64,000 bases of DNA, from NCBI GenBank assembly GCA_963664115.2, contig CAXWPJ010000005.1, positions 1-64,000 on the forward strand, written 5' to 3'. Positions 8,454 through 62,397 of this stretch are shown here, one piece after another. Position 1 is the stretch's first letter. Each line of letters starts with the position of its first letter. The translations under genes and the position numbers were made by a program. Origin of the DNA: Terriglobia bacterium (GTDB lineage: Bacteria; Acidobacteriota; Terriglobia; 20CM-2-55-15). The notes under the pieces are model-generated. The model was not told the DNA's origin. It saw nothing but the letters and a program-made list of their open reading frames with translations, and did not search any database.

Positions 8454-8462
8454 TTTTGAAGG

Positions 8463-8501
8463 TCGAGTCCTGAGAAATCATCTTCTCGGACCTTGAGAAT
8501 T
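8463..8501 (+). repeat. Putative recombination site (pseudo-palindrome, ATCATC spacer)
   Basis: TCGAGTCCTGAGAA-ATCATC-TTCTCGGACCTTGAGAATT; starts 9 nt after the tail stop codon. Confidence 0.8.
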
Positions 8502-8573: not shown

Positions 8574-11282
8574 ATGGAATCAGGCACGAAACTTGCGCAC
8601 TACGAAATTCTGTCCCCGCTTGGTAAAGGCGGCATGGGAGAAGTGTGGCGTGCGAAGGATACAAAGCTCGGTCGTGAAGTCGCCATCAAGACGTTGCCTG
8701 AAGAGTTCGCACAGGATGCGGATCGTCTAGCACGGTTCGAGCGTGAAGCTAAACTCTTAGCGTCGCTGAATCACCCAAACATTGCAGCCATTCACGGTTT
8801 TGAAGAAGACAACGGAACACACTTCCTTGTCATGGAGCTTGTTGAAGGCGACACGCTTGCTGATCGGTTGAAACGTGGTGCGATACCTGTAGAGGACTCC
8901 CTCAAACTAGCCCTCCAGATTACTGAAGCGTTGGAAGCTGCGCACGAAAAAGGCGTCATCCATAGAGACCTGAAACCAGCCAACATCAAAGTCACGCCCG
9001 ACGGGAAAGTGAAGGTGTTGGACTTTGGTCTCGCTAAGGCGTTTGCGGGAGATGAATCCGATGTCAGCGTGTCGAATTCACCCACGCTGAGCATGGCTGC
9101 GACCCAGCAAGGAATCATATTGGGTACAGCGGCATATATGTCGCCCGAACAGGCACGGGGCGAGACGACGGACAATCGTGCCGACATCTGGGCGTTTGGT
9201 TGCGTGTTGTTTGAGACGCTCACTGGGGAAAAGACGTGGACCGGGCGGACTGTCACGGACGTGATTGCGGCGTTGGTCGCCCGTGAGCCTGAATGGAAAC
9301 GTCTGCCTCCAAACCTGCATCCACGCATTCGGTTTCTTCTGGAACGCTGCTTAGAGAAAGAGTCCAAAGACCGACACCACGGCATTGACGAAGCGCGTTT
9401 GGAGATTCAGAAGGCCGTGGCTGAACCGGGTGTCGCATTGACGCAGCCCGTCGCGGGGCTTGCTCAACCGAGACCGCAGTCGAAACTACCGTCGGTTGCT
9501 GTATTCGCTGTGGGATTGGTAATCGCTGGTGTTGCCGTCTGGAACTTGAAGCCATCCGACCCACGTCCTGTCAGCCGATCAGAATATGTACTTCCAGAAG
9601 TCCGCAACTTTAGACAAACGGCGCGACCAGTCCTTACATTTTCTTCTGATGGCAGCAGATTCGTCTACAACGCAACGGGGGGGCTGTATTTGCGCTCTAT
9701 TGACGAACTAGAGTCCAGGGTCATTTCCGGAACGGAGGCCACGCTCGACAATCCGACTTTCTCGCCTGACGGTGAATGGTTAGCTTACTGGTCTGTAACG
9801 GACACTCAACTGAAGAAGATTGCCACTGTTGGCGGTGCCCCAGTGTCGTTAGCCGAGATTGCGGTCAGACCCTCTGGCATTAGTTGGGATGTGGATGATG
9901 CGATCTTGTACGGCGGGTCAGAAGGGATCATGCGTGTGTCTGCGAACGGGGGAGAGCCAGAACTGCTCATTCCGAATTTGGATGAAGGGCCCATTGTTGT
10001 GTATCCACACCTTCTACCCGATGGAAATGCCGTCCTTTTCGGGATCGCCGCTGGGCAGGTTGGGGTGCAATCACTCGATTCAGAAGAACCGCAGTTATTG
10101 TTCCCAGGAGAGCACCCTCGATATGTTTCCACAGGGCATATCATCTATTTCCAAGGGGGTGCGCTTTTCGCCCTTCCGTTTGACCTAGGGGCGCTGGAGG
10201 TAACGGGTGGGCCAGTTCCCCTAGTCGAAGGGGTTCGGGGGGGACCGCCGCAATATGCAGTGTCCGAATCGGGATCGCTTATCTACGTCCCAGGGGCAGG
10301 ATCAGACGCTGTTGCCAATGCGGTTCTTGCATGGGTGGATCGAAACGGAGCGCGGGAACCACTCCCCGTCCCGCCACGGCCTTATCGCCAACCGCAAATA
10401 TCGCCCGACGGGACGCGCCTGGCGGTTGAAGCCGTCGACGCCAGTGGCGACAGCGACATCTGGGTTTACGATCTCGACGGTAGCACGCAGATGAGACAAA
10501 TGACGGGAGAAGGGAACAACAGTCATCCCATCTGGACTCCTGATGGTGAACGATTGACGTTTGCCTCGGATCGGGACGGCCAGGTAAGAATCTACTGGCA
10601 ACTGGCCGACCTCAGTGGCGTCGCGGAGCCGCTGACCGAGCCCGAAGAAGGGCTGGAGCCAAGGCCGGACTCATGGGCCACCGATGGTCAGACTCTTGCG
10701 TTCACAAGGGGATCATCAATTGCCAGCGAGGGCGTATGGATATTTTCCCTCGATGATGGTGCCGTCACGGAAGTTTTCGCGGGGGGGAGCGTTCATCCTG
10801 GTTATTCTAATGCTGGTAGTCCTGCTTTTTCGCCGGACGGGCGATGGCTGGTGTATCGCAGGAACGTGGACGGCGAAGGCGGACAACTCTTTATGGAGCC
10901 GTTTCCAACCACGGGGACCGAATTCAGACTGACCCAGGACGGCGGGTCCGCTCCCATGTGGTCCCGTGACGGGCGGGAACTCTTCTACCGGCGGAATGCT
11001 CAGACGATTGCTGGGCTTGCAGCAGGAGCGCGGTCCCCGAACTTAATGGCTGTGGACATCTCACTCGAAGGCACACCGGAGTGGGGCAACCAGCGCGTCC
11101 TGCCGATTGAGAGTTTCCTGGTCTTCCAGGGTTCTGTGGACTACGACATCACTCCTAACGGCGAGCGATTCATCATGGTCTTCCCCTCAGACCAGACCGA
11201 ATCCGGCGAACCTGCCCGCCCCCGAATCAACATCGCCCTGAACTGGTTTGAAGAACTGAAGGAACGGGTGCCGGTGCCTTAA
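8574..11282 (+). CDS. Hanks-type Ser/Thr protein kinase with TM helix and TolB-like (PD40) beta-propellers
   Basis: [28 protein letters not shown]; repeated SPDG blades; ends NWFEELKERVPVP. Confidence 0.95.
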   Translation: MESGTKLAHYEILSPLGKGGMGEVWRAKDTKLGREVAIKTLPEEFAQDADRLARFEREAKLLASLNHPNIAAIHGFEEDNGTHFLVMELVEGDTLADRLKRGAIPVEDSLKLALQITEALEAAHEKGVIHRDLKPANIKVTPDGKVKVLDFGLAKAFAGDESDVSVSNSPTLSMAATQQGIILGTAAYMSPEQARGETTDNRADIWAFGCVLFETLTGEKTWTGRTVTDVIAALVAREPEWKRLPPNLHPRIRFLLERCLEKESKDRHHGIDEARLEIQKAVAEPGVALTQPVAGLAQPRPQSKLPSVAVFAVGLVIAGVAVWNLKPSDPRPVSRSEYVLPEVRNFRQTARPVLTFSSDGSRFVYNATGGLYLRSIDELESRVISGTEATLDNPTFSPDGEWLAYWSVTDTQLKKIATVGGAPVSLAEIAVRPSGISWDVDDAILYGGSEGIMRVSANGGEPELLIPNLDEGPIVVYPHLLPDGNAVLFGIAAGQVGVQSLDSEEPQLLFPGEHPRYVSTGHIIYFQGGALFALPFDLGALEVTGGPVPLVEGVRGGPPQYAVSESGSLIYVPGAGSDAVANAVLAWVDRNGAREPLPVPPRPYRQPQISPDGTRLAVEAVDASGDSDIWVYDLDGSTQMRQMTGEGNNSHPIWTPDGERLTFASDRDGQVRIYWQLADLSGVAEPLTEPEEGLEPRPDSWATDGQTLAFTRGSSIASEGVWIFSLDDGAVTEVFAGGSVHPGYSNAGSPAFSPDGRWLVYRRNVDGEGGQLFMEPFPTTGTEFRLTQDGGSAPMWSRDGRELFYRRNAQTIAGLAAGARSPNLMAVDISLEGTPEWGNQRVLPIESFLVFQGSVDYDITPNGERFIMVFPSDQTESGEPARPRINIALNWFEELKERVPVP

Positions 11283-26588: not shown

Positions 26589-26855
26589 TTTTTCGAACCC
26601 CCATGACGAAAGAACTTGACCGCCGCAGTCCTTCGACCTTCTAATAATCCTTAGCATCAGGAGTGGTTCGGTACTTACCGAACCCGGCAACCGGTACGGA
26701 GAGACACGGTGCCTTTGACGCCGAAAGCGTCAGATGTGCGAGACGACTCGAAACAACTCTCCAACACCAACCGTCGCCCTGCCCTGTGCAGGGCGTTCGT
26801 ATTTTCGCCCTCCTGGTGCGTGTCGAATCATTTCGATCTAGCCCAGGAGGTAACG

Positions 26856-37577: not shown

Positions 37578-37606
37578 GAGAAATGATTCCCTTGGATGTT
37601 GAGAAT
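37578..37606 (+). repeat. Degenerate partial recombination site
   Basis: GAGAA-ATGATT-CCCTTGGATGTTGAGAAT; faces the site at 37621. Confidence 0.45.
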
Positions 37607-37620
37607 CGGGCGAAAACGGA

Positions 37621-37648
37621 AATTCTCAAGGTCCGCGAAGATGATTTC
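37621..37648 (-). repeat. Recombination site, 3' part (split by group II intron; 5' part at 39652-39666)
   Basis: Joining the flanks gives ATTCTCAAGTCCTGA|GAAATCATCTTCGCGGACCTTGAGAATT. Confidence 0.85.
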
Positions 37649-39651
37649 GTAGGGTCGAGCACTGGTGCGGTAACCCGTAGGCCACTCCTTGGCTGTATCC
37701 GGCGTTTCCGCCTTCGTGCCCGTTTAGGAGTGGCCGTAGCTCCGTTTCCAGCGCCCGCCACTTCGCACGCAGCGTGCGGATTTCCCGCACTACGCGCTCC
37801 TGCACACTTCGCCTCAAGGGTTATGAGACCTGTCGAGTGAAAGCGACTATGCAGAATGGCAGGAATAGGACACACGGTAGGCATTGAACAACCCCACCGT
37901 CCCATACAGCCAAGCTGCACTCCACCGCTTCCATCCGAAACCGCGACGCTGACTGGCTCGGGCCCGGTGGGACCGGATCTTCTTTTCAACCCAGGCGCGA
38001 ATGAACTGGAAGCATCCGCTGGAGTGACCAAACGCAAAGTAACGCACCCACCCGCGCAGGATCGGATTGATCTGCTCGATCACCCGATGGAGCGGCTGGG
38101 ACTGCGTACGCTTGAATATCTGATTGAGTCGACGGAGCAACGCGGTCCGCTTTGCTAACTTCGGCGTCCGCAATGCCATCCATCGTCCCCGGCGACTACG
38201 AACGCGCCGGAACTCAAAGCCGAGAAATCCAAAGCTCTCTCCCCGCGTCAGGTCCACCCGTCGGCTCTTCTCCGCATTCACTTCCACCTGAATCTTCGCC
38301 AACTCTTCCCGAAGTCGCTTCTCGACAACCTGCCGAAGCCACTGATACCGCGGATGCGCATCCACCAGGACCACCATGTCATCGGCATACCTGGCGTACT
38401 CGATACACTCCCGCTGCCGGTTCCGGGTAACTTGCTTAGCCCGCTCTAACATCCGATCGACATCATTGAGATAGATGTTACTGAGCAGCGGCGAAATCAC
38501 CCCACCTTGCGGCACACCCTGCTTCCCTGACGCCTTCAGCATCCATTTCAGGAGTCCAAGCACCTCCGGATCGCGGACTCTCTCGGCGACTTTCGCTAAA
38601 ACGATGGGGTGTTTCACCGTGTCGAAGTAGCGTCGCAGATCGAGATCGATCACGTCGGTCTTACCCTCAACGATGGCTCTGGAAACGCGCCCGATGGCAG
38701 CGTGTGCGGTCTTCTTCGGTCGATAGCCGAAGGATCCGGGTTGAAAGTCTGCTTCAAAGATTGGTTCCAGGATCAGCTTCAATGCACCCTGAACCACCCG
38801 GTCCCGGATCGATGGGATCGAAAGCATCCGTTGCTTGCCCCCCTCCTTGGGTATCCCCACCTTCCGGAGCCGTCCGGGTCGATATCTACGTTCGATCAGC
38901 TCCTCTCGAAGCTGGTCGAGAAACCCTTCCACGCCTGCGGCCTCAACGGCGTCAAACGTTACCCCATCGATTCCCGGGGCACCGTCGTTGGCCTTTGCCA
39001 ACCGGTACGCTTCCTGAAGCGTTTCTCGCTTTACCACGTGGATATACAACCCCCAAAAGCGCCAGGCCGGTTCGGCCTTCGCCTTGACGTATAGTCGTCG
39101 CCTCAGGTCTTGCAGACTAATGGGCGCATTTGTCATTTCACCCCTGCCTCCCGTCTTGGTTTCGACCTCATGTACAGCAGGGCCCCTTGGCTCCACGGGC
39201 GTTACTCCGCTTCATCGCTACTACGGACCCGGCCGCCACCGTCTCGTCTGCTCCCGACTTTCCGGTTGTGCCGGTTATACGATCGCTCCTGCTCCACCGA
39301 TTTCTCGATGGGACGAGGACGGTTTCTCCAGTTGCTCGGCATGTCCTTGTCACCGTGCTGCCCCTAATCACCCCGCCGGAGTGACAAGCCGCTTCGGTCA
39401 GATTGCGACATATCATGCTGCCTTCGCCCGTCCCAAGAAGGCTCGGCCTCCGGATCTACTCATTTCGAGGCCACCTCTAGGTTCACTTGCGTTGCGGCCC
39501 GGTGACTCACTCACCATCCTTTCTGATGGCTTTGTCGATCGGCTTCATCCGCTTCGTTTCCTCCACGGATGCGACCCAAGTTACAGAGTCTCTGACTCTT
39601 ACTCTGGTGGGGCTCTATCCCACTGAACATGCCAGCCTTAGCTGGACGCAC
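37649..39651 (-). mobile_element. Group II intron (about 2.0 kb)
   Basis: 5' GTGCG, 3' CTCGACCCTAC; domain V-like GAGCGCGTAGTGCGGGAAATCCGCACGCTGCGTGC after the ORF. Confidence 0.9.
37847..39133 (-). CDS. ltrA: Group II intron reverse transcriptase/maturase, no endonuclease domain
   Basis: GAPGIDG, IPSIRDRVVQ, SFGYRP, PQGGVISPLLSNIYL, YADD, NPILRGWVRYF. Confidence 0.92.
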   Translation of the reverse strand, partial: TNAPISLQDLRRRLYVKAKAEPAWRFWGLYIHVVKRETLQEAYRLAKANDGAPGIDGVTFDAVEAAGVEGFLDQLREELIERRYRPGRLRKVGIPKEGGKQRMLSIPSIRDRVVQGALKLILEPIFEADFQPGSFGYRPKKTAHAAIGRVSRAIVEGKTDVIDLDLRRYFDTVKHPIVLAKVAERVRDPEVLGLLKWMLKASGKQGVPQGGVISPLLSNIYLNDVDRMLERAKQVTRNRQRECIEYARYADDMVVLVDAHPRYQWLRQVVEKRLREELAKIQVEVNAEKSRRVDLTRGESFGFLGFEFRRVRSRRGRWMALRTPKLAKRTALLRRLNQIFKRTQSQPLHRVIEQINPILRGWVRYFAFGHSSGCFQFIRAWVEKKIRSHRARASQRRGFGWKRWSAAWLYGTVGLFNAYRVSYSCHSA

Positions 39652-39776
39652 TCAGGACTTGAGAATGGATTTCAGGGCACCGGCACCCGTTCCTTCAGTT
39701 CTTCAAACCAGTTAAGGACGATGTTGATTTGGGGAGAGGCCGCTAAGTCCGTTTGGCCTTCAGGTAACGCCACTAG

Positions 39777-47850: not shown

Positions 47851-47878
47851 ATTCTCAACGTCCGAGAAGATGATTTAT
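47851..47878 (-). repeat. Recombination site, 3' part (split by IS110; 5' part at 49337-49346)
   Basis: Joining the flanks gives TCAAGTCCTG|ATAAATCATCTTCTCGGACGTTGAGAAT. Confidence 0.85.
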
Positions 47879-47993
47879 TGATGGTATGGACTCCTCTTTG
47901 ATGACTGAGTCGGCATCGAAGTGCCAAAGTCATTTTGAGCCTCGCAATAAAGCGGGCGAAACACGTGTACGTGTGAACAAAAAGGAGTCCGAG

Positions 47994-49028
47994 ATGAAGA
48001 ATAGAACGATAGCAGTGGATCTGGCAAAGAATGTTTTTCAAATTGGTGTTTCAGATCGCCCCGGGCATGTAGAGAAAACCTATCGTTTAAGTCGGGCAAA
48101 GTTTCTGGGGTTCTTTGCGAACCAGGAGCTGGCGACCGTGGTGATGGAAGCCTGCGGATCCGCCCATTACTGGGGTCGGAAGATCCGGGAACTGGGACAC
48201 ACGGTCGTTCTGATCTCGCCGCAGTATGTGACGCCCTACGTCAGGCGCAACAAGACCGACCGTACGGATGTGAAAGGATTGTTGGAAGCCTATCGTGACA
48301 GCGATATTCATCCAGTGCCGGTCAAAACCCTGGCCCAACAGCAACTGACCTCATTGCATCGAATCCGTTCGGCGTGGATGCGAACCCGAACCGCACGGAT
48401 CAATACGGTGCGGGGGTTGTTACGGGAGTTTGGCTACGTGATCCCGACCGGAGCGGATCATCTGGTGCCGGGGGTAATGGAGCTGATCGAAGATGCAGAT
48501 GTCGTCATCCCCAGTGTCGTTCGGGAGATGTTTCACCAGGTGTGTGGCGAGATCCGTGAATTGGAATCTCGCATGCGATCGGTGGAACAAGAGTTGAAGA
48601 CGCTGGCTCGGCAGATGCCTGAGGTCGCGCGTCTGACGTCGATTCCCGGCATCGGCCTGTTAACGGCAACGGCAATGGTGGGGTTTGTTGGAAACATCAA
48701 ACGATTCCGAACGTCCCGCCATTTTGCCAGTTATCTGGGACTCACACCCCGGGAACATTCCAGTGGCAACCAGCGACGCATGGGCCGGATCAGTAAGCAA
48801 GGCGATCGTTACCTCCGGATGCTGTTGGTTCATGGGGGCCGTTCCCTGTTGTGGAGTGCCCATCGAGAGGGCGCCACACCGACACCTCTCCAGCAATGGG
48901 GTCTCCAGAAACACGAGTTCCGCGGACACAACAAGGCAATCGTTGCACTGGCCAACAAGTTGGCGCGTCGCGTGTGGGCGGTTTGGAACCGTGACTGTGA
49001 CCATCAGGCCCGGTATCAGGCGGCCTGA
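47994..49028 (+). CDS. IS110-family DEDD transposase
   Basis: AVDLAKNVFQ, MEACG, KTDRTD, IPGIG, GLTPREHSSG, ALANKLAR. Confidence 0.93.
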   Translation: MKNRTIAVDLAKNVFQIGVSDRPGHVEKTYRLSRAKFLGFFANQELATVVMEACGSAHYWGRKIRELGHTVVLISPQYVTPYVRRNKTDRTDVKGLLEAYRDSDIHPVPVKTLAQQQLTSLHRIRSAWMRTRTARINTVRGLLREFGYVIPTGADHLVPGVMELIEDADVVIPSVVREMFHQVCGEIRELESRMRSVEQELKTLARQMPEVARLTSIPGIGLLTATAMVGFVGNIKRFRTSRHFASYLGLTPREHSSGNQRRMGRISKQGDRYLRMLLVHGGRSLLWSAHREGATPTPLQQWGLQKHEFRGHNKAIVALANKLARRVWAVWNRDCDHQARYQAA

Positions 49029-49049
49029 CCCGAAACAGTCGGAATATCT

Positions 49050-49240
49050 TTTCAGCGAGCTGCGATGAGGTTCGAGATGATGGCGTACCGGTCAGACCGG
49101 CGCGGGGCAACGCCGACAAGTCCTTTGGCCCTTAGAGGCCGTTATTTTATCGGTTGGCTCCCCGCGCGCAAATTTCCATCATGGCCTGGAACAATACAGT
49201 TCCACTTTTGAGGCCGAAGATACGGGTGCAGTCGACTAGC
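49050..49240 (+). ncRNA. Putative seekRNA / bridge RNA of the IS1111-type element
   Basis: Downstream non-coding region contains CAAGTCCT and TTTAT (match target flanks) and CCATCA and AGATA (match IS ends). Boundaries approximate. Confidence 0.55.
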
Positions 49241-49355
49241 TACTCACCTCGTAACTTCTAGTCAGTCCTGCTGAATGCATTTTGCCGAAGAAAGCTGACG
49301 GGAGAGCTGCGCCTACTTGACAGAGGAGTCCAGATACAGGACTTGACCTCGAAAA

Positions 49356-51983: not shown

Positions 51984-52056
51984 CGTTATAGTGTGTCGCT
52001 GAAATACAGTGAAAAACTCTGCAAAGGATACTAAGGCAGGAAGTTAGGCGCTATTA

Positions 52057-52097
52057 AATTCTCAAGTCCTGAGAAACGACATTCTCGGACCTTGAGA
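52057..52097 (+). repeat. Recombination site flanking the recombinase (ACGACA spacer)
   Basis: AATTCTCAAGTCCTGAGAA-ACGACA-TTCTCGGACCTTGAGA. Confidence 0.85.
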
Positions 52098-52188
52098 CTT
52101 TGATTGGCAGCTCGACACAGCACGGCCGTATATAAGGCTCTCTAACTCTCTTAAGAATGTGTGGCTTCGCCTATTTTCCGGTGAATGG

Positions 52189-53139
52189 CTATGCGCCTTC
52201 CAGACCCAACCGATCATTTACTGCATGACGCAGTTTCTGTTTGCAGCCCAGGTAGCGTTCCGTCGTCAACACTGAGGAATGACCCAGCAGGAACTGAATC
52301 TGCTCAATCTCGCCCCCGGCCTGGTAGCACAACCGAGCGCAGGTCCGACGCAGATCGTGTGGGGCAAGTTGGCTGATCTCCGATCGCTTTGCAACTTGCT
52401 TGATAATTCGCCAGACGACTTTTCCAGACAGACCGTCACCCCAGACACCTCCATAACGGTTCACTCTGCGAAAAATTCTTCCAGCACTAATTCCGGCCGA
52501 CCGTGTCCAGTTGTCCAATGCAGCTTTGACCCAGTCCGGCATTGGCACGGTTCTAACGCGTCGACCTTTGCCGATAAGATCCGCAATGATCCAGTGGTCT
52601 TCCCGGACCTGCAAATTCTCGACTCGCAGATCTACCAACTCAGATCGTCTTAAACCACATCCGAGGAGTACGGCAACGATCGCGCGATCTCGAAGGCCCC
52701 GGAGGTCGTCAGACTTGAAGCCAGTTAATAAGGTCCGCCCTTGCTCGGCCGTGAGCCAGTTGCCTATGATTCGTCCCTTTGATTTTGCTCCCTTGACATG
52801 CTGGATTCCCGCTGCCAACTCGGGACTCAGGAGTCCGCAATCCGAAGCCTCATGCGCCAAACGGCGAACAGCAGCCAGGTGCACATTGATGGTCGAAGCG
52901 GCGAGGTTTCTTTCCTTCAGATAGGTTTTGTATCGTCGAACAACAGTCCGGTTGAAAGCAAGGCGGGGCTCTGAACAATACCATCGTATGAATTCGTCAA
53001 TTGCTCGTCGATATGATCTTTGTGAACTTTCTGACGCCAGTGAAGCCAAGACCGCGGCCCTGGATTGTTCAAGGTCTGGCAGCTTGAGGGTCGTCTTCAT
53101 CCGTGACTTTTTCCGCTTCTTATCCGTTTCTCTTTTCAT
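52189..53139 (-). CDS. Stand-alone tyrosine recombinase (Xer-like size, no arm-binding domain)
   Basis: GCGLRRSE, GKG, HDLRRT, LGH, TERY catalytic set; GGAGG RBS. Confidence 0.92.
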   Translation of the reverse strand: MKRETDKKRKKSRMKTTLKLPDLEQSRAAVLASLASESSQRSYRRAIDEFIRWYCSEPRLAFNRTVVRRYKTYLKERNLAASTINVHLAAVRRLAHEASDCGLLSPELAAGIQHVKGAKSKGRIIGNWLTAEQGRTLLTGFKSDDLRGLRDRAIVAVLLGCGLRRSELVDLRVENLQVREDHWIIADLIGKGRRVRTVPMPDWVKAALDNWTRSAGISAGRIFRRVNRYGGVWGDGLSGKVVWRIIKQVAKRSEISQLAPHDLRRTCARLCYQAGGEIEQIQFLLGHSSVLTTERYLGCKQKLRHAVNDRLGLEGA

Positions 53140-53229: not shown

Positions 53230-53272
53230 ATTCTCAAGGTCCGAGAATGTCGTTTCTCAGGACTTGAGAATT
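53230..53272 (-). repeat. Recombination site flanking the recombinase (ACGACA spacer), inverted
   Basis: 53232-53272 is the exact reverse complement of 52057-52097. Confidence 0.85.
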
Positions 53273-53346
53273 TAATAGCGCCTAAGTTCCTGCCTTAGTA
53301 TCCTTTGCAGAGTTTTTCGCAGCTTTTTCAGCGACACACTTTAAAC

Positions 53347-56953: not shown

Positions 56954-58012
56954 CTACTGTGACGATTCCAGGAACCAACCCAGCTGTGCCTCGGCGCACT
57001 CACCGACGACGGTCAGATGACGCTGGACGGCTTCTGAGTCAACGAAGGGGTGCGGTTCGCCCGGGTTCCGAAATCGGAGACCGTTGACCTTGGCCAAGGT
57101 ATTGTCATGGTTCGTATGACTGGCCAGAAAGACATCAACGCGGGCCCTTAGTGCGATGTCTCGAAAACGCCGCGCCGAGGCGCTATAGATTGCTAGGCCC
57201 TCTGAACGCTCCGGCCAGTACCGGACCCCCATGGAATTACCTCCCCAGATGCTTCCCAAATGCCAGCGGTCTCCATCCTTGAGTGGAATCAAGGTCGATA
57301 TCGTCCCCGGGGTGTGACCAGGCGTGATATAGAGCGTTACGGTGGTATCACCCAGCGTCAGTTCCATCCCGTCCGTGGCCACCATGTCTTTCCTGGGCTT
57401 CAACTCTGGCGGACTGTTGTCGTTGGCTACGAGATTCCAATCGGCCTCAGACATGATGATGCGCGCTCCGTACCTGTCCTGGAGCGTCTTAGCTCCGTAA
57501 TAGTGGTCGGAATGGCCGTGGGCAATAATGACGTACTTGATGTCGGCCGCATCAAGCCCCATCTGTCGCAGTCCGTCGACGATTTCGTCCTCGACCATAT
57601 AGTCGTAGGCCGTATCGTGGAGAATAATTCCTTCCGAAGTCGTCACCGCCCACATCGCTAGGCCTTGGATGTACGATCCGTCAGCAAGAGTCATCTCATT
57701 GCTACCGATGTAATAAAGGTTGTCGAATATTTTATGTGGCGGTTCGTACCATAGTTCGCGCGGTGGAATCGTTCGGGGGGGCCGCGCAGCCGTCGGCGCC
57801 GCAGGCGGCCGAGCGGACGCATTGATGACGTTTCTAGAGAACTCTCCGCAATTCCTGTCGAATATCCAGGTGAAATCATTTCCAGGTGAGTATGCCGCAG
57901 CCTTGGCTGCGGCCTCATGACTTTCCGGTGTACCGGTCTGCGCGTTCGATTCAGTCGAAATCCAACCGCCTGCAAGCAGGATCGAGAGCACGGACGGCAA
58001 GTAGCGCTTCAT
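56954..58012 (-). CDS. Secreted metallo-beta-lactamase-fold hydrolase (subclass B3-like)
   Basis: PHKIFDNLYYIG, HGHSDH, TPGHTPG; signal peptide. Confidence 0.85.
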   Translation of the reverse strand: MKRYLPSVLSILLAGGWISTESNAQTGTPESHEAAAKAAAYSPGNDFTWIFDRNCGEFSRNVINASARPPAAPTAARPPRTIPPRELWYEPPHKIFDNLYYIGSNEMTLADGSYIQGLAMWAVTTSEGIILHDTAYDYMVEDEIVDGLRQMGLDAADIKYVIIAHGHSDHYYGAKTLQDRYGARIIMSEADWNLVANDNSPPELKPRKDMVATDGMELTLGDTTVTLYITPGHTPGTISTLIPLKDGDRWHLGSIWGGNSMGVRYWPERSEGLAIYSASARRFRDIALRARVDVFLASHTNHDNTLAKVNGLRFRNPGEPHPFVDSEAVQRHLTVVGECAEAQLGWFLESSQ

Positions 58013-58299: not shown

Positions 58300-58343
58300 A
58301 ATTCCCAAGTCCCGATAAATCATCTTCTCGGACGTTGAGAATT
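58300..58343 (+). repeat. Putative recombination site (ATCATC spacer)
   Basis: AATTCCCAAGTCCCGATAA-ATCATC-TTCTCGGACGTTGAGAATT. Confidence 0.85.
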
Positions 58344-58869: not shown

Positions 58870-58983
58870 GATCTGCTCCTTGGCGGGAACCCTATCATGG
58901 AGCCATCCAGACGGCTAGGTTTTCGGAAGAGAGTGTCCTAAGTGTCCCCGAACATCCCAGCATTTCCTCCGAATCTTCCCGGG

Positions 58984-59022
58984 TCAAGTCCTGATAAATC
59001 ATCTTCGCGGAAGTTGAGAATT
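58984..59022 (+). repeat. Putative recombination site (ATCATC spacer)
   Basis: TCAAGTCCTGATAA-ATCATC-TTCGCGGAAGTTGAGAATT. Confidence 0.82.
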
Positions 59023-59578: not shown

Positions 59579-59600
59579 AGCAGGTCGTTCGTCCCCGCCT

Positions 59601-61089
59601 GTAGCCCGTCAGAGCATTTCGCACAGAATCCGCTGAAAAACTAAGAGACACTTTTCTAATCAGAACGATCTGAAGGAGGATCGAATGAGTGAGAAAGTGT
59701 CGGCAGAGAATCGGGTACGGGAAATTCGTCGGAAGACGAGGAAGAAGTACTCGTCGGAAGAGAAAGTGCGGATTGTGTTGGAAGGACTGCGAGGGGAAGA
59801 GAGCATCGCAGCGCTGTGCCGACGCGAAGGGATTCCATCGAATTTGTATTACCGGTGGAGCAAGGACTTCCTGGAGGCAGGCAAGAAGAGACTGGCTGGG
59901 GACACGAAGCGGGAAGCCACGTCGAGCGAAGTCACTGAGTTGCGGCAGGAAAACGATCAGTTGAAGCAGGTCGTGGCCGAAATACTGCTAAAGAATCGTT
60001 TTCTGAAAAAAACGTTGAACGTAACGGACTCCGAGAGCATCGATATATGAGGCAATCGGGATCTGAGAAGCTGGAGACGATCCGAGTGGTGGAAGACTCG
60101 GAGTTGTCGGTGACAGCGACCCTCCGGGAGCTGGGCGTCCCCCGCAGCACGTTCTACGGTTGGTATCGACGATACAAAGAGCGTGGCGCAGCCGGCTTGT
60201 TAGATCGGCATTCCGGCCCCGGCTTCTGCTGGAACCGGATTCCGGGACCGGTGCGGGAACAGGTGGTCGAAACCGCGTTGAACCACCCGGAAGCCTCACC
60301 GCGGGAACTGGCCTGGCAGATCACCGACACCCAGGACTACTTCATCTCCGAATCCAGCGTGTATCGGATTCTGAAGAGATGCGACCTGATCACCAGTCCC
60401 GCATACATCGTGATGACGGCCAGCGATCACTTCCAGCAGCCAACCCGGCGTGTGAACGAACTCTGGCAAACTGATTTCACTTACTTCAGGGTCGTCGGTT
60501 GGGGTTGGTACTACCTGTCGACCGTGCTGGACGATTACTCTCGCTACATCATCGCCTGGAAGCTCTTTCAAACCATGGCCGCATCTGACGTTCAGGACAC
60601 GCTGGACGTTGCACTACAGGCGACAGATGTCGGACAAGTACAAGTCCGGCACCGACCGCGATTGTTGAGCGACAACGGCCCCTGCTACGTATCGCACGAA
60701 CTCAAAGACTATTTACAACGTCGTGGTATGGAACACACCCGGGGTGCGCCCTATCACCCGATGACACAGGGCAAGATCGAACGCTATCACCGTTCGATGA
60801 AGAACGTGGTCAAGTTGGAACACTACTATTATCCGTGGGAACTTGAGCAGGCGATCGCGCAATGGGTCGAACACTACAACCACCATCGGTATCACGAATC
60901 TCTGAACAACGTGACACCGGCTGACGTGTTCTTCGGGAGGGATCAGCAGATCCTTGCACGTCGTGACCAGATCAAAAGAAAAACGCTGGCTCGACGCAAA
61001 ATCGAGAACCTTAGGATTGGAGTGGTATAACTTCAAAACCGTCTCTTAGCTAAATGGTCTTTTTGTCCGAATTATTCTGACGACGTACA
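59601..61089 (+). mobile_element. IS3-family element, complete (orfA 59685-60050, orfB 60047-61030)
   Basis: TG...CA ends (TGTAGCCCGTCAGA / TCTGACGACGTACA); WQTDFT, SDNG, GKIER DDE motifs. Confidence 0.9.
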
Positions 61090-62397
61090 GTTCAGAGATT
61101 CGTGATACCGATGGTGGTTGTAGTGTTCGACCCATTGCGCGATCGCCTGCTCAAGTTCCCACGGATAATAGTAGTGTTCCAACTTGACCACGTTCTTCAT
61201 CGAACGGTGATAGCGTTCGATCTTGCCCTGTGTCATCGGGTGATAGGGCGCACCCCGGGTGTGTTCCATACCACGACGTTGTAAATAGTCTTTGAGTTCG
61301 TGCGATACGTAGCAGGGGCCGTTGTCGCTCAACAATCGCGGTCGGTGCCGGACTTGTACTTGTCCGACATCTGTCGCCTGTAGTGCAACGTCCAGCGTGT
61401 CCTGAACGTCAGATGCGGCCATGGTTTGAAAGAGCTTCCAGGCGATGATGTAGCGAGAGTAATCGTCCAGCACGGTCGACAGGTAGTACCAACCCCAACC
61501 GACGACCCTGAAGTAAGTGAAATCAGTTTGCCAGAGTTCGTTCACACGCCGGGTTGGCTGCTGGAAGTGATCGCTGGCCGTCATCACGATGTATGCGGGA
61601 CTGGTGATCAGGTCGCATCTCTTCAGAATCCGATACACGCTGGATTCGGAGATGAAGTAGTCCTGGGTGTCGGTGATCTGCCAGGCCAGTTCCCGCGGTG
61701 AGGCTTCCGGGTGGTTCAACGCGGTTTCGACCACCTGTTCCCGCACCGGTCCCGGAATCCGGTTCCAGCAGAAGCCGGGGCCGGAATGCCGATCTAACAA
61801 GCCGGCTGCGCCACGCTCTTTGTATCGTCGATACCAACCGTAGAACGTGCTGCGGGGGACGCCCAGCTCCCGGAGGGTCGCTGTCACCGACAACTCCGAG
61901 TCTTCCACCACTCGGATCGTCTCCAGCTTCTCAGATCCCGATTGCCTCATATATCGATGCTCTCGGAGTCCGTTACGTTCAACGTTTTTTTCAGAAAACG
62001 ATTCTTTAGCAGTATTTCGGCCACGACCTGCTTCAACTGATCGTTTTCCTGCCGCAACTCAGTGACTTCGCTCGACGTGGCTTCCCGCTTCGTGTCCCCA
62101 GCCAGTCTCTTCTTGCCTGCCTCCAGGAAGTCCTTGCTCCACCGGTAATACAAATTCGATGGAATCCCTTCGCGTCGGCACAGCGCTGCGATGCTCTCTT
62201 CACCTCGCAGTCCTTCCAACACAATCCGCACTTTCTCTTCCGACGAGTACTTCTTCCTCGTCTTCCGACGAATCTCCCGTACCCGATTCTCTGCCGACAC
62301 TTTCTCACTCATTCGATCCTCCTTCAGATCGTTCTGATTAGAAAAGTGTCTCTTAGTTTTTCAGCGGATTCTGTGCGAAATGCTCTGACGGGCTACA
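61090..62397 (-). mobile_element. IS3-family element, second copy truncated at its 3' end by copy 1
   Basis: Near-identical inverted copy; stops at HESLN where the right end of copy 1 abuts. Confidence 0.9.

Follow-up and report, generated by a model that had tools for sequence, protein, structure and literature searches.

Insertion into recombination sites is known for the group IIC-attC introns (S.ma.I2 and its relatives), which lack an endonuclease and occupy a fixed base of a repeated cassette junction (PMC3001079, PMC7923331), and IIB introns have been reported beside attC (PMC7923331). According to the same literature, IIC introns have no EBS2 and carry a stem-loop upstream of a short IBS1 (PMC3753933, PMC7923331), and IIC-attC introns lie opposite to the direction of cassette transcription (PMC7923331). 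Homing to a multicopy element by EBS-IBS pairing is described for RmInt1 of Sinorhizobium meliloti, an endonuclease-less IIB intron of class D that targets an IS630-family insertion sequence and apparently exploits DNA that is single-stranded at the replication fork (PMC5894124). The g2 introns, among them B.th.I3 (RT-X only, about 2.0 kb, 5-nt domain V loop), have as their listed hosts transposases, a hypothetical gene, and non-coding DNA, none of the listed hosts being a repeated recombination site (PMC3552965). Among DNA transposases, elements of the IS1111-attC group and of the IS1202 family at pdif/dif also specialize on recombination sites, and the targets of IS1111/IS110 elements include REPs as well as attC (PMC11187229). 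In the open-licence literature (titles and abstract openings), no report was found of a group II intron in dif-like or REP sites, nor of the site system described below; the REP literature found there concerned insertion sequences, and that on Acidobacteria cassettes concerned integrons or mobile elements generally.

The window, that is, the whole stretch of 64,000 nucleotides of Terriglobia bacterium DNA analysed here, contains a group II intron that interrupts one copy of an abundant 41-bp repeat (Table 1). Like the IIC-attC introns, it is endonuclease-less and sits at a fixed base of a repeated junction whose site family is also hit by IS110/IS1111-family elements, but it differs from them in its probable g2 protein, its 6-nt EBS1 and additional EBS2, the position of the IBS within the putative stem, and its sense orientation to the upstream gene. 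It resembles RmInt1 in mode and B.th.I3 in clade, and differs from the former in target and in the class of its intron-encoded protein (IEP), and from the listed members of the latter group in residing in a repeated recombination site. The explanation regarded as probable is that its EBS pair with the left arm of the repeat, and that a small sub-lineage retrohomes there by ordinary RNA-DNA base pairing.

Table 1. Features of the interrupted site, the intron, and the related elements in the window.
Feature	Position	Strand	Basis or remark
Group II intron, 2,003 nt, IIB-type ribozyme; IEP probably group g2 (class F in the wide sense)	37649-39651	-	
Left part of interrupted site (site positions 1-14), with IBS1 (39652-39657) and IBS2 (39660-39663)	39652-39665	-	
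Right part of interrupted site (site positions 15-41: rest of left arm, 6-bp spacer ATCATC, right arm)	37622-37648	-	
EBS1 (UUGGGA), 6/6 with IBS1 (4 Watson-Crick, 2 wobble)	39431-39436	-	domain I alignment and covariation
EBS2 (AUGAGU); UGAG pairs with CTCA at exon -12 to -9	39458-39463	-	alignment to homologues, by eye
EBS3 candidates: A in family register (mismatch to +1 G) or adjacent U (wobble)	39367-39368	-	
Intron-encoded RT/maturase, YADD, no endonuclease domain; likely ATG start at 39136	37847-39196	-	
Domain V, 5-nt GAAAU loop, AC bulge	37765-37797	-	fold
Extended domain VI, bulged A (37655) 7 bases from 3′ end	37649-37762	-	fold
3′ end of Ser/Thr kinase-PD40 gene (INIVLNWFEELKERVPVP and stop), truncated upstream by IS1380 remnant; intron in its sense direction	39672-39728	-	
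Degenerate opposite-facing site copy just downstream of the intron's site	37581-37608	+	repeat family D4, 68% identity
Empty site copy	8460-8500	+	
Empty site copy	58302-58342	+	
Empty site copy	58981-59021	+	
Site with second spacer type (ACGACA), adjoining tyrosine recombinase gene	52059-52099	+	
Site with second spacer type, other flank of recombinase gene	53230-53270	-	
XerC-like tyrosine recombinase between two B-type sites; candidate cognate enzyme	52189-53139	-	
IS110-family element in another site copy, 1-2 bases from the intron's position	47877-49337	+	

The intron runs on the minus strand from GTGCG at 39651 to CGACCCTAC at 37649 and shows the hallmarks of a group II intron (GUGYG 5′ end, AY 3′ end, domain V, and domain VI with a bulged A), together with a match to the Rfam model group-II-D1D4-4 at 39487-39625; on the question of domain I, an unconstrained fold gave z = -3.05. 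Excision in silico regenerates TTCTCAAGTCCTGA/GAAATCATCTTCGCGGACCTTGAGAAT (here and below the slash marks the insertion point) without duplication, and the restored junction scores 68.5 bits against a profile of the genome's own sites, so that the coordinates given by the first-pass annotation, from which a full site had been restored on removal of the intron, are exact. The 3′ junction is bridged, with 0-1 differences, by contigs from 4 of 4 sequencing runs (4 studies), one of which may be the source sample itself, and the intron is therefore not an assembly artefact. Two sediment-metagenome contigs (X13 record 14 and X14 record 22) extend from the intron 15 bases into the left arm, an overlap shorter than the 31-letter minimum and left uncounted, and the remaining X13 contigs end at the intron 5′ end with unrelated sequence and with the EBS out of view. 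In the joints that skip the intron, from runs X1, X2, X4, and X5, one side spans no more than 25-28 bases, too few to call an empty allele.

The open reading frame codes, from a GTG, for 449 aa with an RVT_1 (115-329) and a GIIM (352-424) domain, and it passes TIGR04416 with 350 bits (cut-off 300). The domain search of this ORF found no endonuclease domain, in line with what had been read from the sequence initially; since this absence is the norm in classes C, D, E, and F (PMC4424553), it is uninformative on the structure of the target. Identity of the IEP is 46-47% to B.th.I3 (g2), 36-37% to Ni.ha.I1 (g3), and 31% to Sr.me.I2 (g1), with the group labels of Table S2 in PMC3552965. In a quick IQ-TREE search, run without bootstrap on 58 of the 124 collected proteins after 85% dereplication and with one reference per class (class E and g4 left out, and class C represented by Microscilla alone, so called in PMC3001079), B.th.I3 joins the IEP and its near relatives in one clade (SH-aLRT 100), from which the references for class C, class D, g1, and g3 are separate. 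Features of IIF type are present as well, namely an RT-X without En and the 5-nt domain V loop that is described for IIE/IIF (PMC3753933). As judged from sequence, the protein likely belongs to g2, class F in the wide sense, and firmly not to class C, and the analogy with IIC-attC introns, for which RT phylogeny had been named as the check, is lost at this level.

Recognition of the target, as read from the exon-binding sequences, is of the IIB type: the short EBS1 of IIC introns (3-4 bp), with no EBS2, was not found here, the 6-nt EBS1 covarying with the exons and an EBS2 being present. Over 71 distinct intron/exon pairs, with four duplicate loci and L141 left out, EBS1 and exon pair at a mean of 5.55 of 6 positions versus 2.93 +/- 0.14 after shuffling, and over the 31 distinct EBS1 sequences at 5.61 versus 2.62 +/- 0.21; wobble is common in the family, with a mean of 5.21 Watson-Crick among the 5.55 paired positions. 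The EBS1 of the window is the only one in the set with complete pairing to TCCTGA, the exon end that the first-pass annotation had proposed as its partner. An earlier candidate, UUAGGG near 39366, was dropped, as the alignment puts the covarying loop at 39431-39436. EBS2 in the homologues matches the exon near -12 to -9 (by eye), and the family register of EBS3 is Watson-Crick in 43 of 47 rows and mismatched in the window copy unless the adjacent U is used; the +1 base of the site is itself variable (G 91, T 51, C 38, and A 3 in 183 sites). In the source genome (G000), 63 of 144 strict targets (CTCA-NN-TCCYRA) and 124 of 362 relaxed ones (TCA-NN-TCCYRA) fall in sites, both motifs having been drawn up after the site was known, and loose wobble rules derived from the EBS sequences alone give 1,346 compatible targets, 53 of which (3.9%) are sites. 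Because this last fraction is so small, base pairing alone is perhaps insufficient to place 3 of 3 copies in sites, and the IEP or the exon structure could add specificity.

The same fraction counts in favour of another reading, according to which the intron would recognize the site as a folded single-stranded hairpin, in the manner of the IIC-attC introns, and the site would be an attC-like substrate of single-strand recombination. The empty site is indeed imperfectly palindromic, with predicted folds of -8.3 and -7.8 kcal/mol for its two strands and a bulge on each arm, and position 33, bulged in the predicted fold, is highly variable. Against this, the median fold energy of the sites is only about -5 kcal/mol, and a comparison of 153 distinct sites gave no compensatory change at the variable positions of the stem: Watson-Crick pairing is seen at 15/26 in 56 of them versus 58.2 +/- 4.8 after shuffling, at 3/38, 2/39, and 1/40 in 72 (73.2), 74 (75.8), and 65 (63.9), respectively, and of the 16 stem pairs tested only 17/24 lies above all shuffles (145 vs 139.4), owing to a few rare variants. 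Structure kept over sequence through compensatory changes, as in attC, is thus not what the site displays; its sequence is conserved. Furthermore, IBS1 and IBS2 lie inside the 5′ arm of the putative stem, so that folding would hide both binding sites, whereas the stem-loop of IIC introns is upstream of IBS1; an EBS2 is present and the IEP falls outside class C; and the window intron, like the two copies in a congeneric genome (G002), runs in the sense direction of the ORF upstream of it, the orientation opposite to that of the IIC-attC introns. No integron integrase was recognized in the 64-kb window, where the XerC-like recombinase reaches 61 bits and the three recombinases at most 110.5 bits with the integron-integrase model TIGR02249 (cut-off 265). 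Recognition of a hairpin is considered unlikely on these grounds, and neither the single-stranded structure nor the IIC-attC-like homing proposed at first is supported.

The abundance of the site, also proposed at first, is borne out: 183 copies at >=18 bits were found in G000 and none in the reversed-genome control. Only 1 of the 183 holds the intron, and there is no sign of a current burst. With a stricter pattern applied to 35 genomes, the counts are 109 in G000, 60 in G002, 26 in G003, 7 in G001, and 0 in G004, and four genomes of another genus have 1-2; the congener G004 has the same arms around a different spacer. In viral contigs, the site pattern had a single match, below full-site score. 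By spacer, 152 of the sites in G000 are of type A, 25 of type B (ACGACA or ACGACC), and 6 unassigned, A sites being tandem and B sites opposite-facing; the 126 pairs of neighbours less than 8 kb apart comprise 83 tandem A-A, 33 opposite A-B, and 2 inverted A-A pairs. The flanks are shuffled at the site: 26 of the 32 downstream-flank families with at least two members are joined to at least two upstream families, and in 10 site pairs the downstream side is >=95% identical and the upstream side unrelated. Crossover mapping (10 and 17 near-identical pairs) did not localize the exchange point. The cores of dif and pdif-like sites consist of two inverted arms around a spacer of 6-8 bp, and the spacer can differ between systems. 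Inverted arms with a 6-bp spacer, spacer variation, and flank exchange were all found in the repeat, and because of the shuffled flanks, the tandem order, and the different spacer in another genome, it looks like a double-stranded recombination core rather than an attC-like hairpin. As to its cargo, 73 of the 183 sites directly follow the 3′ end of members of a Ser/Thr kinase-PD40 gene family, the commonest cargo, which is also present in the window at 8574-11282 and as fragments, and B sites carry a conserved promoter-like stretch that is directed into the next gene (52002-52058 and 53271-53327 in the window, and the 3′ flanks in G002).

Whether the intron lineage has specialized on this site, as the first-pass annotation had supposed, depends on how widely the lineage is drawn. 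A search for the junction pattern over 401 genomes of the class matched 24 loci in 23 genomes, where the only introns are the window copy and two loci in G002, the other loci being chance matches (a reversed control matched about as often); a 3′ junction pattern matched only G002 among 5 genomes. The G002 copies are ORF-deleted (864 and 861 nt), are 89-94% identical to the window intron (about 90%), and share with it EBS1, EBS2, and the insertion point at TCCTGA/GAAATCATC; their empty junctions score 64 and 68 bits. A full-length copy of the sub-lineage is absent from G002, where the best IEP match is 41%. By contrast, among homologues at <=79% IEP identity, drawn from GTDB genomes, metagenomes, and relatives, none of 66 junctions (including duplicates and a few distant introns) resembles the site, the best scoring -29 bits; these relatives, the nearest full-length one (from G004) included, sit in unrelated targets, the outcome that the first-pass annotation had named as a refutation, and the family has 31 distinct EBS1 sequences. 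The GTCC-like flanks of L003-L008, L034, and L038 had seemed site-like and proved to be the introns' own IBS2, with scores of <=-29 bits. No other intron of G000 (about 30% identical, with loosely placed 5′ ends) was seen splitting a site, a 58-nt intron remnant at C2:196129 in G000 has a different exon that matches a G004 copy, and a search with the EBS1-loop pattern had no match in 400 other sampled genomes of the phylum (G002 lying outside the sample) or in viral contigs. Specialization on the repeat therefore does not extend to the wider lineage, and it holds, on sequence comparison, for a narrow sub-lineage of three copies in two genomes of one genus.

Those three copies might instead go back to a single chance insertion in an ancestor of the genus, copied later by duplication, gene conversion, or recombination between introns, with no true specialization. 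All of them were found in a single genus; L196, one of the G002 pair, has the same 41-bp site variant as the window copy and 10 identical bases upstream, an identity that could stem from one old insertion; the two G002 copies share a 3′ flank family; and three wobble or mismatch positions (two in EBS1, one in EBS3) would fit an ectopic event, although wobble is, as noted above, common in the family. On the other hand, the two G002 introns are 97.3% identical to each other and their 3′ flanks only 89.5%, over a mere 114 nt, their 5′ flanks and genes are unrelated, and the left and right arms of their sites differ, which makes two or more separate insertions likely. In G000, the shared 3′ flank family is found next to an empty site (C9:1127792), and the three copies agree in EBS1 and EBS2 but vary in the EBS3 loop. 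A single insertion is accordingly judged decidedly unlikely, and specialization of the narrow sub-lineage is preferred.

Several further observations concern the relatives. ORF-less copies in G002 (864/861 nt) and G004 (854/861 nt) have a near-identical internal deletion junction with different EBS1 and targets (L195, L196, L233-L236), which suggests either an old non-autonomous lineage or swapping of domain I. The introns of T. elongatus are from a different host and have a different IEP class, with an endonuclease. They, too, include ORF-deleted copies and families with diverged targets, as in G002 and G004 (PMC2882425). Many relatives sit in other group II introns, either within domain V or a short way in from the 5′ end, as judged by eye after 20 profile hits lacking a recognized GUGYG start had been set aside (L002, L010-L012, L018, L121-L124; L020, L021, L025, L027, L029, L031, L046), and one set targets a recurring TTTTGGCGA-NNN-A/C motif (L013-L015, L042, L051, L056, L156, L163).

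The intron is not alone at the site. The IS110-family element of the window has six full copies in G000 (the others at C12:332440, C10:234725, C9:1234249, C11:39768, and C3:6354), 6 of 6 after the left arm and 5 of 6 before the right part, and among its relatives in congeners 7 of 12 loci (L271-L282) adjoin site arms, including those of G004 with the different spacer. It is comparable in this to the IS1111-attC and IS1202-family elements, which are likewise DNA transposases, with known targets (attC, REP, and Xer sites) other than the repeat of the window (PMC11187229). Further elements probably target the same site. A second one at the site spacer is represented by seven right ends and three left ends with sub-terminal inverted repeats, and a third, with ends AGATCAACCGGTCGAT, also inserts there (second and third element loci in G000: C2:753737, C9:941394, C10:419022, C11:28970, C11:1099, C12:342002, and C12:167621). 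Sub-terminal inverted repeats are typical of IS1111-type elements. In addition, half-sites directly adjoin the start of a unit made up of an integrase and, after it, a transposase-like ORF (C3:2882-3778 and C12:569307-570296 in G000; L264, L265), which suggests another site-using element or the recombinase of the site itself. Elsewhere in the window, a SAM-I/IV riboswitch match lies on the plus strand within a prophage-like or integrative island (26649-26766), a metallo-beta-lactamase-fold protein with weak B3-subclass matches, all below cut-off, adjoins a site on the minus strand (56954-58012), two identical inverted IS copies of 1,308 nt lie 182 nt apart (59600-62397), and IS1380 and IS256 are represented by several copies, of which some show many small deletions.

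A search of G002 and G003 for the XerC-like gene that lies between two B-type sites gave nothing at E <= 1e-40, and the site was absent from all 12 homologue loci; for these reasons the gene may be cargo. That no recombinase was tied to the site by these searches is compatible with a further reading, in which the intron's specialization stands but its target is a selfish palindrome of the REP kind instead of a recombination site. The repeat is intergenic, palindromic, and multi-copy, it lies after stop codons (most often those of the kinase genes), and IS1111/IS110 elements hit REPs as well as attC (PMC11187229). This reading is highly improbable, given that flanks are swapped exactly at the site, the ten pairs above among them, that two spacer types occur in fixed relative orientation, that G004 keeps the arms and changes the spacer, and that the stem shows no covariation.

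In summary, the favoured explanation is retargeting of an endonuclease-less intron by base pairing, in which EBS mutations would have directed a g2 ancestor onto the left arm of the repeat, and the repeat would then have supplied some 180 non-coding targets on the gene-sense strand. Reverse splicing by the RNP would occur while the site is transiently single-stranded at the replication fork, by analogy with RmInt1, the GC skew on contig C5 being too weak to assign the replication strand, and the ORF-less copies would depend for their movement on an IEP provided in trans. The repeat itself would be a double-stranded tyrosine-recombinase core, arms plus 6-bp spacer, separating shuffled gene cassettes, and the copy split by the intron, three bases from the spacer, would be inactive. 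A broader interpretation, which is favoured by a modest measure only, regards the repeat as the crossover site of an undescribed two-spacer gene-cassette system of the genus, old and abundant, on which parasites would have converged independently: the retargeted g2 intron with its non-autonomous copies, at least two and probably three IS110-family elements, and the integrase-transposase element. The intron would then be a non-IIC intron specialized on a double-stranded recombinase core.

Taken alone, the intron is mechanistically ordinary, and the novelty lies mostly in the site system. It may represent a second route to life at junction sites, plain EBS retargeting in a IIB-type lineage with at least 30 other EBS1 specificities, and, as the IBS and the stem can be mutated separately, base pairing and hairpin recognition are cleanly separable here. 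Parasites favour abundant, neutral, long-lived sites; since both the intron and the IS110 elements appear specialized on the repeat, as IIC-attC introns and IS1111-attC elements are on the junctions of integrons, they provide independent evidence that the repeat is a real functional junction.
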